Numbered from the stretch's first letter, positions 18,684-23,284 are shown. The stretch is 64,000 bases of DNA from Escherichia coli (GCA_902499925.1 GCA_902499925.1_4130.1); one strand, 5' to 3'. The notes: generated by a model not told the origin, from the letters alone. Made by a program: numbers and translations.

Positions 18684-18890
18684 TTACTTCCTATATATAA
18701 GCATTAACATATAGTAGTACTGATTATGCTGTACATTCTCTTTAATATTATAAGGGTCTATAGCAATCTCGGTACATCTGTTAAATGCATATCTATTAAA
18801 TGCCAGTACTATTATAGATCTAATCCATGCTTGGTCAGTCGGTGGTAGTTTACTTATATAGTACTCTTTATAATTTTTTATGTTCTGCAT
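18684..18890 (-). CDS. small paralog-family protein, subfamily A (68 aa)
   Basis: Member of tandem array; C-terminus ...MLMLIYRK. Confidence 0.5.
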   Translation of the reverse strand: MQNIKNYKEYYISKLPPTDQAWIRSIIVLAFNRYAFNRCTEIAIDPYNIKENVQHNQYYYMLMLIYRK

Positions 18891-18901
18891 AGTATACCTT
18901 A

Positions 18902-19093
18902 TTATTTCAAAGTACCATATAGTACTCTTAATAGGAAGTAGTACGTATTAGAAATATCATTACTAGTTAAAACAATCTTTGTACACATATTAAATTCGTA
19001 TTGAGTCATTGCCAGGGGGATTAAATTGTTAACCCATGCTTGTTCGTTTTCTTTGAGTTTACTTATATAGAAATCTTTATGTTCTTTATTCAT
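18902..19093 (-). CDS. small paralog-family protein A (63 aa)
   Basis: MNKEHKDFYISKL... / ...LLRVLYGTLK. Confidence 0.5.
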   Translation of the reverse strand: MNKEHKDFYISKLKENEQAWVNNLIPLAMTQYEFNMCTKIVLTSNDISNTYYFLLRVLYGTLK

Positions 19094-19295
19094 ATAGGAA
19101 TAGTATACCTATGATGCCGGAGTACATATTAGTACTGTTATTATTGGCGTTTGCGTTTAAAGTCATTTGAATACAATTATTGTAGCATACTCTGCCGAAA
19201 TATGTATCAGTACTTAAAGGTGCTGTAGTCCTTAGAAACATTTGTTCTGTGGGGCTGAGGTGTTTGGAATAGAATTCTTTATGTTCTTTATTCAT
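19086..19295 (-). CDS. small paralog-family protein A (69 aa)
   Basis: MNKEHKEFYSKHLSPTEQMFLR...; close paralog of 19669..19875. Confidence 0.5.
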   Translation of the reverse strand: MNKEHKEFYSKHLSPTEQMFLRTTAPLSTDTYFGRVCYNNCIQMTLNANANNNSTNMYSGIIGILFLYE

Positions 19296-19300
19296 ATTAG

Positions 19301-19486
19301 TTAGTGTCTGTATATAAGTAATAGTAAGAATACGTACTGCACCTGTTCATCTTTAGTATTGAGTACTGTACGTATTGCGTCATGGAACAAGAATATAGTA
19401 CTTGGGTCATTAGAATTTAAGGGGTTTACGGGGACGGCGTGTTTGTAGTTCCCTTTAACAAATTGTATATAGTATTCTCTATGCAT
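19301..19486 (-). CDS. small paralog-family protein A (61 aa)
   Basis: MHREYYIQF... / ...LLLLIYRH. Confidence 0.5.
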   Translation of the reverse strand: MHREYYIQFVKGNYKHAVPVNPLNSNDPSTIFLFHDAIRTVLNTKDEQVQYVFLLLLIYRH

Positions 19487-19487
19487 A

Positions 19488-19676
19488 TCAGTACCTATAT
19501 ATTAGGGCGAGAATGTAGTACAGTTTATATGTATTATAATCTGGGTTGATAGCACATAGTGTGTGGTAGTGGAATTGTTTGGTATTTTTCTTATCCTTGA
19601 TATCTATTGGGTTTAGTGGTATAAGCATTTGGGAGTTTAGTTCCAGATGGTTTAAGTAGAATTCTTTGTTATTCAT
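19488..19676 (-). CDS. small paralog-family protein A (62 aa)
   Basis: MNNKEFYLNHL... / ...ILALIYRY. Confidence 0.5.
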   Translation of the reverse strand: MNNKEFYLNHLELNSQMLIPLNPIDIKDKKNTKQFHYHTLCAINPDYNTYKLYYILALIYRY

Positions 19677-19875
19677 AGAAGAATATTAGTCCCATTACGC
19701 CTGAGTATTGAATATTTTTGTTATTGTTTTCTAAAGCTTCTAGAGTAATACGTATACAATTATTAAAGCAATCTCTGGCGTGTGGTGTATCTAAACTTAA
19801 AGGTGATACACTCCTTAGAAACATTTGTTCTGATGCACTGAGGTGTTTGGTGTAAAATTCTTTCTGTTCGTTCAT
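19669..19875 (-). CDS. small paralog-family protein A (68 aa)
   Basis: MNEQKEFYTKHLSASEQMFLR... Confidence 0.5.
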   Translation of the reverse strand: MNEQKEFYTKHLSASEQMFLRSVSPLSLDTPHARDCFNNCIRITLEALENNNKNIQYSGVMGLIFFYE

Positions 19876-19885
19876 ATTGGCCTCT

Positions 19886-20074
19886 TTAGTACACGAAAGC
19901 TAGGTACAGTGTATGATACAGTACTCGATGATAGCTATCAAAATCTAGTATACATGCTTTAGTGCACATAGTAAAGTACACTTTATCGTTTTGAGCATTG
20001 ATACCGCGAGGTTTATCTAATAGATTAGTACTGAGGTACATTGGGAAATATTTTGTGTAGTATTCTTTATGCAT
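19886..20074 (-). CDS. small paralog-family protein A (62 aa)
   Basis: Track ORF 19886..20119 trimmed to Met16 (MHKEYYTKYF). Confidence 0.45.
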   Translation of the reverse strand: MHKEYYTKYFPMYLSTNLLDKPRGINAQNDKVYFTMCTKACILDFDSYHRVLYHTLYLAFVY

Positions 20075-20075
20075 A

Positions 20076-20258
20076 TTAGTACCTGAATATAAGTAGGATA
20101 GTGTTATATAATTGGTCATAACTACTACTATTTTCTATACTTCGTTCTATGCAGTTATTGAATCCCAGTACTGCCAAATCGTTATCCAGGGGGACTTTGT
20201 ATCTGGCGTAGTGTTCAAAAATGCTGGGGAGAAATTGTGTGTAGTATTCTTTGTGCAT
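20076..20258 (-). CDS. small paralog-family protein A (60 aa)
   Basis: MHKEYYTQFL... / ...ILLIFRY. Confidence 0.5.
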   Translation of the reverse strand: MHKEYYTQFLPSIFEHYARYKVPLDNDLAVLGFNNCIERSIENSSSYDQLYNTILLIFRY

Positions 20259-20259
20259 A

Positions 20260-21483: not shown

Positions 21484-21672
21484 TTACATAGAGATGAGTT
21501 TCAGTACATCAATATACATATAACGTTCAGATGACAGTACACGGGTAGTGATAATCTCAATCGATATATTTTTAATTCCATGTGCAGATGATTGATGGTG
21601 CTGAATAAATGAGTTGTGCATACTTTGTTCTATGTGGTTTAGTTTATTGAAGTAGTACTCAAAAGTGTTCAT
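21484..21672 (-). CDS. small paralog-family protein B (62 aa)
   Basis: MNTFEYYFNKL... / ...YIDVLKLISM. Confidence 0.5.
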   Translation of the reverse strand: MNTFEYYFNKLNHIEQSMHNSFIQHHQSSAHGIKNISIEIITTRVLSSERYMYIDVLKLISM

Positions 21673-21679
21673 GTCTACC

Positions 21680-21859
21680 TTAGATTGAGATTAGTTTAAG
21701 TACTTCTCTGTACGTGTACTTTTCGTTTTGTGCTTCTACTGTACATGATAGTAGGTATCGTTTTTTATCTCTTTTGTTCCCGACTGTGTAGTACCTTTGG
21801 AATTTATTATAGTTGTATCTATCTTTGTGCTGGAGGTTATAGATATAGAATTCTTGCAT
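21680..21859 (-). CDS. small paralog-family protein B (59 aa)
   Basis: Untracked ORF MQEFYIYNLQHKDRYNYNKF...YTYREVLKLISI. Confidence 0.45.
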   Translation of the reverse strand: MQEFYIYNLQHKDRYNYNKFQRYYTVGNKRDKKRYLLSCTVEAQNEKYTYREVLKLISI

Positions 21860-21867
21860 AGAGTACC

Positions 21868-22053
21868 TTAGATTGCTATCAGTTTGAGTACTTCAATATA
21901 TGTGCGGTACTCTGCTTTAATTAAATTTGTACACACTGTAAGGGAATTTCTTTGTATAAGTTTATTGCCGCTTTTATACGCATTTCTCCACACATAGAGA
22001 TGAGATCTTTCAGGCATAGATAGTTTATTTGTATAGTACTCAAATGTATTCAT
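21868..22053 (-). CDS. small paralog-family protein B (61 aa)
   Basis: MNTFEYYTNKL... / ...YIEVLKLIAI. Confidence 0.5.
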   Translation of the reverse strand: MNTFEYYTNKLSMPERSHLYVWRNAYKSGNKLIQRNSLTVCTNLIKAEYRTYIEVLKLIAI

Positions 22054-22061
22054 ATATTACC

Positions 22062-22265
22062 TCAAATAGAGATTAGTTTAAGTACTTCTCTGTATGTGTA
22101 CTTTTCGTTTTGTGCATCTCTTGTGCTTGTATATAGGTATCCTCGACGATATTTGTTGCTCCCGTTCTTGTAGTTGAATTCGAACTTATTGTAGATGAAT
22201 CTATCGCCAGGCTGTAATTTACTTAAGTACAATTCAATGCTCATAGTATTCTCTTTACATATCAA
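22062..22265 (-). CDS. small paralog-family protein B (67 aa or shorter from Met8)
   Basis: ...YTYREVLKLISI; start uncertain. Confidence 0.45.
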   Translation of the reverse strand: MICKENTMSIELYLSKLQPGDRFIYNKFEFNYKNGSNKYRRGYLYTSTRDAQNEKYTYREVLKLISI

Positions 22266-22440
22266 TAAGTTTCAGTACTGCTCTGTACGTGTACTTAGTT
22301 GTTAGTGCTTCTTTTATAGCAATACAGAAGTAATGTTGTTTGTCTCTTATACTACCGCGTTTGTAGTACCATACATTGGAGTTGTGGGTGTACTTGTCCC
22401 TGTCGGATAGATTTTGGTAATAGTATAATATATGATTCAT
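22255..22440 (-). CDS. small paralog-family protein B (61 aa)
   Basis: MNHILYYYQNL... / ...YTYRAVLKLIDM. Confidence 0.5.
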   Translation of the reverse strand: MNHILYYYQNLSDRDKYTHNSNVWYYKRGSIRDKQHYFCIAIKEALTTKYTYRAVLKLIDM

Positions 22441-22649
22441 GGTAATGTAATTAGCCTTACTATATTAAAGTACTCGGTCCCTGGTACACCTTGTAGAATA
22501 TTATCAACTACATTTTCTTGGTGCAGGATTAATACATTCGGTGCGGTTCTTTTAAGGTTTTTTAAAGTACTGTATTCTTGTTTAAGGATGAACTGTACAT
22601 CTTTAGGGAGAATATCTAAGTAGTACTGGTGTATGTTCATAGTTTTCAT
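22437..22649 (-). CDS. small paralog-family protein B (70 aa)
   Basis: MKTMNIHQYYLDILP... / ...FNIVRLITLP. Confidence 0.5.
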   Translation of the reverse strand: MKTMNIHQYYLDILPKDVQFILKQEYSTLKNLKRTAPNVLILHQENVVDNILQGVPGTEYFNIVRLITLP

Positions 22650-22660
22650 ATAGTACTCTT

Positions 22661-22846
22661 TTAGAACTTAAAGATGAGGTTCATGATAGATAAGTACTTA
22701 GTTTCAGGAAATTGATGTTCTATTGCATAACGTGTCTCCAGTCTGAAGTCAAATTTATAAAAGGGACTATTCATATCCATAGGTTCATTGGGAAATGAAT
22801 CTCTGTATTGTTTGTGCAGCTTACTACAGTAGAATTCTTTATACAT
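22661..22846 (-). CDS. small paralog-family protein B (61 aa)
   Basis: MYKEFYCSKL... / ...LSIMNLIFKF. Confidence 0.5.
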   Translation of the reverse strand: MYKEFYCSKLHKQYRDSFPNEPMDMNSPFYKFDFRLETRYAIEHQFPETKYLSIMNLIFKF

Positions 22847-22847
22847 A

Positions 22848-23060
22848 TTAGTGCTCGATTAAAAGGGTTAGGATGTAATAGTATTGCATACTTTCTACCC
22901 CTTGTACAGCATTTCTTATTTTATTATTCCTGTACGAGTTCAAGAGTTTAGGACAATGTTTGAATTGTATAAAATTATTTTGTGTATACAGTAGGCTTTC
23001 TCGTAGACCTTTTGTTGGTAGTGCATCAATGTAGTACTGTTCAATGTTCATAGTGTTCAT
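22848..23060 (-). CDS. small paralog-family protein B (70 aa)
   Basis: MNTMNIEQYYIDALP... / ...YILTLLIEH. Confidence 0.5.
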   Translation of the reverse strand: MNTMNIEQYYIDALPTKGLRESLLYTQNNFIQFKHCPKLLNSYRNNKIRNAVQGVESMQYYYILTLLIEH

Positions 23061-23284
23061 AGAGCTACCAGTACTAAGATTTTTGATAATTGTTTATTGC
23101 TATTCCCGCAGATGTTGCTGTGTAAAATACTCACTACAAGGGTATCAAGTGCATTGTTCAGCATAAGGTTACATCCAGTACTGTTATGTGTTTTTAGCTC
23201 AATTAGCCACGATTGGTCCGCGAGAAACTTCCCGTACTCTAGTTCATTTAGAGTATTAATGTAGTACTTAAGTGTAGTTGTCAT
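23057..23284 (-). CDS. small paralog-family protein B (75 aa)
   Basis: MTTTLKYYINTL... / ...LSKILVLVAL; first gene of the minus-strand array. Confidence 0.45.
   Translation of the reverse strand: MTTTLKYYINTLNELEYGKFLADQSWLIELKTHNSTGCNLMLNNALDTLVVSILHSNICGNSNKQLSKILVLVAL

Follow-up and report, generated by a model that had tools for sequence, protein, structure and literature searches.

Organization of the array and its surroundings

Positions 18684-23284 of the window (the whole 64,000-nt stretch that was analysed) hold 21 back-to-back genes on the minus strand, separated by gaps of -8 to +11 nt (Table 1). A tandem array of minus-strand ORFs had been placed here by an initial annotation made from the sequence alone, and the ORFs were found at the positions that it gave; ORFs of 55 aa or more on this strand cover 96.9% of the interval, compared with a mean of 4% and a maximum of 19% in 500 shuffles. 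The array comprises 19 demonstrable paralogs of 57-70 aa, a doubtful gene of 75 aa and an unrelated ORFan of 219 aa, and searches elsewhere in the 64-kb window found no further family members. The length range first proposed, 57-78 aa, was too wide at its upper end, because three ORFs had been read too long; the shorter supported starts of m07, m10 and m15 (62, 57 and 60 aa) bring the family to its present range.

The window derives from an Asteriusvirus jumbo coliphage, with 99.3% identity to WPEC5, and the array itself is 99.3% identical to WPEC5 CDS0073-0093. Nucleotide 1 of fEgEco12 aligned to window position 18381, which marks the boundary of the direct terminal repeat (DTR), the physical genome end in fEgEco12; the DTR of this phage is 20,993 bp, as restriction digests confirm (PMC13070987). 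Since the last array gene ends at 18684, about 300 bp from this boundary, the array adjoins the repeat and lies in unique sequence. The initial annotation had joined the array, a "non-coding island" and an RCC1 array into a single diversification hotspot of 17-41 kb, a view that our data do not bear out. The island holds the DTR boundary, that is, the genome terminus, plus strong promoters, and the RCC1 array (15 RCC1-like paralogs) is a separate late structural unit, as judged from its divergent transcription relative to the small genes, from the T4-type late-promoter motif TATAAATA, one of only two in the window, that precedes it, and from its products, which are virion proteins in phAPEC6 (PMC7247149). 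An Rfam scan of 16500-23500 gave no match.

Table 1. Features of the small-gene array, from its promoter to the DTR boundary
Feature	Position	Strand	Remarks
Array promoter, sigma70-type	23310-23338	-	TTGACA 23338-23333, 17-nt spacer with CAGTACTG, TACTAT 23315-23310
First operon gene, 75 aa	23057-23284	-	conserved, single-copy; membership of the family doubtful, very divergent
m19, 70 aa, A-like	22848-23060	-	leave-one-out 21 bits; phmmer m17 5e-10, m01 8e-6
m18, 61 aa, subfamily A	22661-22846	-	leave-one-out 32 bits; phrog_11711 E 2e-15
m17, 70 aa, A-like	22437-22649	-	weakest clear member; leave-one-out 13.4 bits vs shuffle maximum 5.8; phmmer m19 8e-10
Subfamily B block, six genes (m16-m11)	21296-22440	-	C-termini ...VLKLI[SAD][MI]
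m16, 61 aa, subfamily B	22255-22440	-	
m15, 60 aa, subfamily B	22062-22244	-	
m14, 61 aa, subfamily B	21868-22053	-	
m13, 59 aa, subfamily B	21680-21859	-	
m12, 62 aa, subfamily B	21484-21672	-	
m11, 59 aa, subfamily B	21296-21475	-	
Embedded ORFan, 219 aa	20626-21285	-	8-nt overlap with next gene
Subfamily A block, ten genes (m10-m01)	18684-20633	-	leave-one-out 19-56 bits; phrog_11711 E 2e-9 to 1e-27
m10, 57 aa, subfamily A	20460-20633	-	
m09, 63 aa, subfamily A	20260-20451	-	
m08, 60 aa, subfamily A	20076-20258	-	
m07, 62 aa, subfamily A	19886-20074	-	
m06, 68 aa, subfamily A	19669-19875	-	
m05, 62 aa, subfamily A	19488-19676	-	
m04, 61 aa, subfamily A	19301-19486	-	
m03, 69 aa, subfamily A	19086-19295	-	
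m02, 63 aa, subfamily A	18902-19093	-	
m01, 68 aa, subfamily A	18684-18890	-	
Unit end	18361-18381	-	terminator-like hairpin GGCAGAGGAAGTCTGCC; DTR boundary at ~18381

Family membership and predicted fold

Leave-one-out HMMs scored 19 of the 20 small proteins at 13-56 bits, and shuffled sequences (300 of each) reached at most 14 bits; by this comparison, the proposed tandem family of tiny divergent paralogs is genuine. The earlier count of about 20 holds for 19 of them and is not demonstrable for the first operon gene, whose leave-one-out score of 4.5 bits lies under its shuffles; hhalign relates this gene to the family with a probability of 55% (E 1e-4), and it has orthologs of its own in all related loci. 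Subfamily B, drawn at first as extending to 23284, is confined to the six genes listed in Table 1, and the three genes at 22437-23060 group with subfamily A. A relationship between the two subfamilies is moderately supported: hhalign aligns them over their full length (probability 83%, E 9e-6), and one metagenomic member scores on both profiles. Identity between paralog copies is 20-48%. The embedded 219-aa ORFan was rejected as a relative of the small family (hhalign probability 0.3%); it matches phrog_29152, to which PHROG assigns no function, and homologs of it turned up in this phage group only.

Among 134 unique members, both terminal motifs that had been noted initially were recovered: Tyr occupies position 8 in 99%, with [E/Q][Y/F]Y-x3-L around it, and the C-terminal motif reads Y-x2-[IV]L-x-L-I, with L59 in 90%. 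A hypervariable segment (residues 13-35) accompanies a conserved Tyr/Leu/Ile core formed by E6, Y7, Y8, L12, F36, C39, I44, Y53, I56, L57, L59 and I60. An AlphaFold model of m09, built on the 19-sequence paralog alignment, is a confident four-helix mini-domain (pLDDT 90, pTM 0.73); structural comparison brought up no relative of it, neither among HTH nor among other known DNA-binding mini-domains. The family is predicted to consist of soluble, Tyr-rich four-helix mini-proteins of ~60 residues.

Promoter and translation signals

Downstream of the array promoter, a Shine-Dalgarno sequence (AAGGAG) is followed by the first ATG at 23284, and TTGACA, TACTAT and AAGGAG are invariant in eight phages, including divergent metagenomic ones with a different first gene. 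No second promoter with a perfect -35 and a score of at least 10/12 was found on the minus strand between 23338 and 18016. The minus strand of the window carries 28 promoters of at least 11/12, and the two strands combined have 30 in which the -35 is perfect and 10/12 or more positions match (shuffles, ~5); the array lies in a block that is dense in such consensus host promoters, a type massively over-represented on the array strand. The late motif is absent from the array strand. A sigma factor is among the products of this phage group (Sharanji, PMC11895373), and in Munch, a related phage, no phage RNA polymerase was found (PMC8273493). Literature searches found neither an Asteriusvirus transcriptome nor a description of the array; timing is read from the promoter consensus, from which we infer that the array is expressed early by host sigma70 RNA polymerase. 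Synonymous divergence drops by half in the last helix (dS 0.115 against 0.21), and the Shine-Dalgarno sequence and start of the next gene lie there.

Selection and gene turnover

The variable middles had been taken as a sign of diversifying selection, and the dN/dS comparison pointed instead to relaxed purifying selection. Comparison with four phage species gave an ortholog dN/dS of 0.42-0.47, which together with the ORF coverage and the HMM scores supports the coding status of the family. The variable segment taken separately reached 0.48, and the closest paralog pairs gave 0.42-0.67; with no value above 1 in any region, pervasive positive selection was rejected. The array values exceed those of the flanking RCC1 genes (0.18-0.20) and of one DTR gene (0.21-0.32), and the 219-aa ORFan gave 0.43-0.48. 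Because the middles vary among paralogs and are kept among orthologs, the copies appear to be old duplications that have specialised, and their dS of 0.5 to >2 likewise implies great age and long retention.

Gene content varies as it does in terminal multigene families, with 16-21 profile-positive copies per phage. The copies fall into about 30-39 orthogroups (39 at 62% identity), of which five occur in 9/9 genomes and eight in at least 8, and one orthogroup has been relocated within the array. Content thus changes as whole genes are gained or lost, and on the reading favoured below fast point substitution is not what drives it. As counter-points to the host-directed role considered there, an arms-race function would often push dN/dS past 1 in some part, which was not observed, and relaxed selection together with gene turnover would also fit weakly selected filler.

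Distribution

The family is restricted to Asteriusvirus, with 33 clusters among 1.84 billion representatives, and word-indexed and exhaustive profile searches returned only Asteriusvirus-type sequences. A tblastn search with m01 matched 34 of 50,697 phage records, a set identical to that from the DNA search. Nothing in Pfam-A exceeded its gathering threshold; the hits, with E 0.02-0.09, were of chance level and scored 13-16 bits where the cut-offs lie at 24-27. Five A or A-like members match phrog_11711 (E 2e-9 to 1e-27, 60-63 of 62 profile positions), whereas m19, m13, m14 and the 75-aa gene had no match to it at E <=0.01, and m13 and m14, the subfamily B representatives scanned, matched nothing in PHROG or Pfam. 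The proteins of phrog_11711 and several Asteriusvirus hypothetical proteins (121Q gp249-265, those of PBECO4, phAPEC6 gp540c-548c) are the same as those of the array; phrog_11711 takes in subfamily A only, and no family entry exists for subfamily B or for the 75-aa first gene.

Discussion

The array is real, yet it is an ordinary type of phage feature. As its best explanation, we tentatively favour one early operon with coupled translation, made up of 19 (possibly 20) paralogs and the 219-aa ORFan, in which the paralogs would be host-directed binders or inhibitors. Transcription by host sigma70 RNA polymerase would begin at the promoter at 23338-23310 and run for 4.6 kb toward the terminal repeat, and translation would be coupled by stop-start overlaps and by Shine-Dalgarno sequences provided by the last codons of the preceding gene. 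Each paralog presents its own variable segment of ~20 residues, and its own surface, on a common hydrophobic core, and the members may serve as accessory cytoplasmic binders or inhibitors, each with a different host target in takeover or anti-defence, in an array that would evolve as whole genes are gained, lost or moved. A role in host takeover or inhibition, which had been suggested initially, seems the most plausible one in view of the early-type promoter, the host-promoter-dense block, the predicted solubility of the proteins, their conserved core and hypervariable segment, and the variation in copy number.

It is possible, if doubtful, that the array is a binder library on one four-helix scaffold, in which each gene neutralises a separate host defence or housekeeping target and the gene junctions act as recombination points, making it a counterpart of the poxvirus and ASFV terminal families. 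The more similar junctions (the last codons with the Shine-Dalgarno sequence, and the first 15 nt) would then enable the exchange, loss and relocation of genes among related phages.

That the genes are weakly selected filler, tandem duplicates with little or no function that accumulated after capsid enlargement by the ratchet of Hua et al. (2017), we judge improbable. These authors describe tandem arrays in 121Q and suggest genome growth by duplication (PMC5646251), the array dN/dS of ~0.45 exceeds that of neighbouring genes, and copies appear and vanish among close relatives. However, dN/dS is clearly below 1 in all regions, the promoter and Shine-Dalgarno sequence are invariant, orthologs are recognisable to ~60% identity, the paralogs are old and all copies are intact ORFs in seven of eight annotated genomes and in all metagenomic contigs, the exception being the UNVERIFIED CMSTMSU record, in which the first gene is broken in two.

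Phage-directed regulators, adaptors or chaperones, such as partners of the RCC1-like paralogs, we likewise hold to be improbable. The two arrays have a common conserved divergent control region, both are multi-copy, and four basic members of subfamily B (+4.5 to +5.6) would be compatible with nucleic-acid binding, for which the family offers no recognised DNA-binding fold. Partnership with the RCC1 array was rejected on two grounds, namely that its late motif and virion products place it in a different temporal class from small genes with an early-type promoter, and that the Yersinia phage fHe-Yen9-04 has an RCC1 array and no adjacent small-gene array in its record. In addition, GAP32 has an RCC1 homolog, and neither GAP32 nor fHe-Yen9-04 is among the 34 tblastn-matching records.

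Membrane-acting or exclusion proteins of the holin, immunity or superinfection-exclusion kind are very unlikely: the hydrophobic C-terminus (...LLLIYRY) that suggests them, in a genome arm with superinfection-immunity-type genes annotated elsewhere, is a stretch of ~10-12 residues modelled as a core helix (pLDDT ~94), no transmembrane segment was found in 19-residue Kyte-Doolittle windows (maximum <=1.13), and the N-terminus (MNNHKEYY...) carries no obvious signal sequence. Equally hard to credit are internal-protein-like virion proteins ejected with the DNA. The array does lie at the genome end, and virion mass spectrometry readily overlooks proteins of this size; many members are unannotated in phAPEC6 and were therefore probably absent from the search database of its virion proteome. 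None of the eight annotated phAPEC6 members is among the 62 virion proteins, and the early-type promoter and the lack of TATAAATA on the array strand also argue against this role. RiPP-like precursors, in which conserved recognition ends would flank a variable core and the 219-aa protein would do the processing, are extremely unlikely despite the small paralogs, the frequent Cys and the one larger neighbouring gene, since the conserved termini make up the hydrophobic core in a fold predicted with confidence, Cys occurs in just 54% of members, and the 219-aa protein has neither an enzyme signature (Pfam scan, AlphaFold) nor a confident fold (pLDDT 39).

Comparable clusters are known from the SPO1 host-takeover module in the terminal redundancy, the T5 pre-early genes in the DTR and the early genes in the terminal repeats of Twort-like phages. 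Like these, the array has many small, dispensable-looking genes with host sigma70-type promoters at or near a long DTR, but those clusters contain mostly unrelated genes with their own promoters, whereas the array has 19 paralogs of one fold behind a single promoter; moreover, it was not found inside the terminal repeat, the SPO1/T5-type placement, but just outside it. The T5 gene classes are also treated in PMC7472727. The paralog arrays near the termini of large eukaryotic DNA viruses (ASFV MGF110/360/505, the poxvirus terminal host-range families and gene "accordions") resemble our array in lying beside terminal repeats, in a membership that varies among isolates and in a presumed host-interaction role; they differ in their unrelated proteins and hosts, and the present array is a bacterial operon without recent amplification (paralog dS >=0.5). 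The ~35 zinc-ribbon genes of Bacillus phage G, a lineage-specific expansion (Iyer et al. 2021, PMC7824862), and an unspecified 121Q array of ">30 very similar genes" (Hua et al. 2017, PMC5646251), which may or may not coincide with ours, are likewise cases of one small domain amplified in tandem in a jumbo phage; here, the domain is a different, helical and previously undescribed one, and its copies are too divergent to be called very similar.

If, as in the favoured reading, the members are host-interaction proteins, they would provide ~30 natural variants of a tiny well-folding scaffold as a compact place to search for new inhibitors of E. coli functions or defence systems, and a case study of how accessory genes of jumbo phages diversify by whole-gene turnover. 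The array, its operon structure and its turnover appear to be previously undescribed. Regardless of function, the locus supplies clear markers, valid for this phage group, of both promoter classes, early and late, and of the boundary of the terminal repeat, and it fills gaps in deposited Asteriusvirus annotations, from which 8/17 members are missing in phAPEC6 and 13/21 in vB_Ec-M-J.

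A tandem family of small genes in Asteriusvirus-type phages

The minus strand at 18684-23284 is tiled by 21 ORFs; ORFs on this strand that reach 55 aa or more account for 96.9% of the region, against 4% (maximum 19%) in 500 shuffles. Three ORFs were shortened to start codons that are used by Escherichia phage WPEC5 and fit the family profile, after which the small proteins measure 57-70 aa, plus a single protein of 75 aa. In leave-one-out scoring, with the profile made from the remaining proteins, 19 of the 20 small proteins reached 13-56 bits, and 300 shuffles per protein never exceeded 14.4 bits. 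The first gene (23057-23284, minus) is treated as a doubtful member because it scored 4.5 bits, is represented by a separate single-copy ortholog in each related phage and matches the family with an hhalign probability of only 55%. The tandem array noted in the initial annotation is thus borne out; its figure of about 20 paralogs of 57-78 aa stands for 19 of them, but with corrected sizes. Two subfamilies, A and B, were also recovered from pairwise and profile scores, although B had been drawn too long, and the genes at 22437-23060 go with A. A profile-profile alignment over the full length (probability 83%, E 9e-6) connects the two, as does a metagenomic member scoring on both profiles; no additional members occur within the 64-kb window. 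The embedded 219-aa gene (20626-21285, minus) is an ORFan found in this same phage group, with no similarity to the small family and an unusable structural model (pLDDT 39).

At the DNA level, 18600-23400 shares 99.3% identity with WPEC5 and 87-99% with 33 further E. coli/Salmonella jumbo phages from the genus Asteriusvirus (121Q/PBECO4 group), and the remainder of the window matches the same group. Among 5.8 billion proteins, a word-indexed search returned 51 family hits, and exhaustive profile searching of 1.84 billion representatives gave 33 clusters; all are 41-84 aa long and come from Asteriusvirus-type phages or metagenomic contigs of the same layout. With the member at 18684-18890 (minus) as tblastn query, exactly 34 Asteriusvirus-type records matched and none from another genus. 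Genomes carry 16-21 profile-positive members, which at a 62% identity cut form 39 orthogroups (about 30 without the error-prone CMSTMSU record); only 5 are shared by all nine genomes and 8 by eight or more. The genes keep a syntenic order, in which whole genes are present or absent and one orthogroup is relocated. In the WPEC5 record every array gene is labelled 'hypothetical protein'; annotation covers 8 of 17 in phAPEC6 and 13 of 21 in vB_Ec-M-J, and array genes are also left out of the CMSTMSU and Ecwhy_1 annotations. Our literature search found no description of the family. The array is a real finding, an undescribed case of a type of feature well known from phages, and of moderate interest as a lead; we hold the gene-family, coding and operon claims with high confidence.

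Operon anatomy and control

Consecutive array genes are spaced by -8 to +11 nt, with three 8-nt overlaps. The final codons of subfamily A genes (I-Y-R-Y-stop, ATA TAT AGG TAC TGA) contribute AGG to the Shine-Dalgarno site of the gene that follows, and in subfamily B the TAA stop forms part of a TAAGGT site. Silent divergence is halved in the last helix (dS 0.115 vs 0.21 elsewhere), consistent with double duty as coding and Shine-Dalgarno sequence. Nucleotide identity among paralogs is likewise highest near gene junctions (0.47-0.57), against 0.29 in the middles, which equals random expectation.

A promoter upstream of the first gene is followed by the Shine-Dalgarno sequence AAGGAG, and both hexamers and AAGGAG are invariant in eight phages, including divergent metagenomic relatives whose first gene differs. 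No second promoter on the array strand (perfect -35, at least 10/12 matches) occurs until 18016. The minus strand of the window is exceptionally rich in host-type promoters: it holds 28 sigma70-type promoters matching at least 11/12, 15 of them 12/12 (perfect TTGACA-N16-18-TATAAT). Under a looser criterion (perfect -35, at least 10/12, both strands), shuffles give about 5. These minus-strand promoters cluster between 44 and 63 kb and in the terminal-repeat portion, and the arm as a whole resembles an early region under host polymerase. Phages of this group carry a sigma-factor gene (PMC11895373); in the related phage Munch, no RNA polymerase of phage origin was identified (PMC8273493). From the conserved promoter, the promoter-rich window and these two reports, we infer that the array is probably an early operon transcribed by host RNA polymerase; no Asteriusvirus transcriptome was found in the literature.

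The 36-nt promoter sequences at 3849 and 4120 are identical, and that at 997 differs by one base. The palindromic octamer CAGTACTG occurs 62 times in the window vs 0.9 expected, most densely at 1-18500 (for example, 13 sites at 16786-18480). The motif (T/C)AGTACTG abuts the TATAAT box on its 5' side in many consensus promoters and also lies within the spacer of the array promoter, and the majority of CAGTACTG copies fall outside recognisable promoters; the octamer could be an element of promoters specific to the phage, or a site bound by a protein, for instance an operator.

Coordinates of array features, promoters and motifs in the window
Feature	Position	Strand	Basis
Re-trimmed ORFs	19886-20074, 20460-20633, 22062-22244	-	WPEC5 starts and family profile
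Subfamily A	18684-20633 plus 22437-23060	-	pairwise/profile scores
Subfamily B	21296-22440	-	pairwise/profile scores
Array promoter	23338-23310	-	TTGACA-N17-TACTAT
Sigma70-type promoters (examples)	997, 3419, 3849, 4120, 4460, 5410, 6448, 7561, 8143, 14913, 18016, 44670, 49280, 60644	-	match at least 11/12
CAGTACTG (examples)	23319-23326, 17995-18002, 49259-49266		octamer count
TATAAATA site	23356-23363	+	28 nt upstream of first RCC1 gene (23391)
TATAAATA site	55698-55705	-	~30 nt upstream of gene 55665..55282

Selection, fold and possible function

Concatenated orthologs compared with four phage species (SHEFM2K, phAPEC6, slurp01 and G17) gave dN 0.07-0.10, dS 0.16-0.23 and dN/dS 0.42-0.47, against 0.43-0.48 for the embedded 219-aa gene, 0.18-0.20 for RCC1 genes and 0.21-0.32 for a terminal-repeat gene, which points to purifying but relaxed selection on the array genes. 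By structural region, the ratio is 0.33-0.48, with 0.48 in the hypervariable segment, and the closest paralog pairs give 0.42-0.67 at dS 0.5-0.8; pairs farther apart are saturated. None of the ortholog, regional or closest-paralog ratios gives a sign of pervasive positive selection, and the diversifying selection initially proposed is not upheld. The duplications are older than the divergence of the sampled phages.

In the most likely reading, which we hold tentatively and at somewhat less than an even chance, the early operon would make soluble accessory mini-proteins that share a scaffold, differ in their surfaces and bind host targets for takeover or anti-defence. A rival is that the genes are weakly selected filler; the constraint on them is relaxed, and it is nonetheless purifying. 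An AlphaFold2 model from a 19-paralog alignment (pLDDT 90, pTM 0.73) has helices at residues 3-10, 14-17, 30-45 and 49-62. Across 134 unique members drawn from ten loci, the conserved positions are E6, Y/F7, Y8 (99%), L12 and Q17 in the N-terminal half and F36, C39 (54%), T/I40, A43, I/L44, Y/L53, I/V56, L57, L59 (90%) and I60 later, with residues 13-35 hypervariable, so that the shared terminal patterns and variable middle first noted hold on alignment. Tyrosine makes up 10% of residues, and net charge ranges from -2.3 to +5.6. The last helix carries a wide hydrophobic stripe (positions 53, 56, 57, 59, 60, 61 and 63), which would fit dimerisation or partner binding. Phage-directed adaptors are another rival. 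Membrane proteins acting through the hydrophobic tail are a third, but no 19-residue window in any small protein is hydrophobic enough for a membrane span, and the 'hydrophobic tail' is therefore better described as a core helix of the folded model. RiPP-like precursors are a further rival to host binders, to be set beside the confidently modelled fold.

Neighbouring genes and the genome end

The RCC1 array (15 ORFs, 23391-41295, plus) is transcribed divergently from the small-gene array. Copies of the octamer TATAAATA, the consensus of T4 late promoters, are strongly depleted in the window (2 vs 13.6 expected), and one of the two precedes the first RCC1 gene. In phAPEC6, the RCC1-like gp549 and gp551 are virion proteins, and none of the annotated small genes is among the virion proteins (PMC7247149). 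This also bears on the rival that the small proteins belong to the virion, although proteomics against annotations that omit array genes could not have detected the omitted ones. Given the late motif and virion status of the RCC1 genes and the non-virion status of the annotated small genes, the two arrays are of different temporal and functional classes, and the idea of one diversification hotspot at 17-41 kb is not supported. No small-gene array lies beside the RCC1 array in the record of Yersinia phage fHe-Yen9-04.

The 'non-coding island' is indeed adjacent to the array, but it holds the genome terminus. Phage fEgEco12 has a direct terminal repeat of 20,993 bp, confirmed by restriction digests (PMC13070987), and its nucleotide 1, where the genome physically ends and the repeat begins, aligns to 18381, 300 bp past the last array gene. 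By this alignment, window 1 to ~18381 is the predicted terminal repeat and the array the final block of unique sequence. A hairpin, GGCAGAGGAAGTCTGCC (18361-18381), coincides with the aligned end. Near it, inside the non-coding stretch, a block at 17479-17630 consists of repeats with an 8-nt period (CCGTCTAG and CCATCCAG are among the units), which gave no Rfam match and may be iterons or a packaging/replication site.

The plus strand is G-rich over 18-41 kb regardless of gene orientation: third-position GC skew is -0.32 on the array coding strand vs 0.0 for the remaining minus-strand genes and +0.19 for the plus-strand RCC1 genes, and cumulative skew is lowest near 18 kb and peaks near 40 kb, which may reflect replication direction. 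Other minus-strand paralogs in the window include a trio of 112-114 aa at 49929-50964 and, within the terminal repeat, a pair of 107 aa (3442-3765 and 10290-10613). Downstream of its RCC1 array, fHe-Yen9-04 has ~115-aa genes annotated 'membrane protein' (7926-10482), and seven minus-strand ORFs of 104-123 aa occupy the corresponding position in the window (41332-43771).
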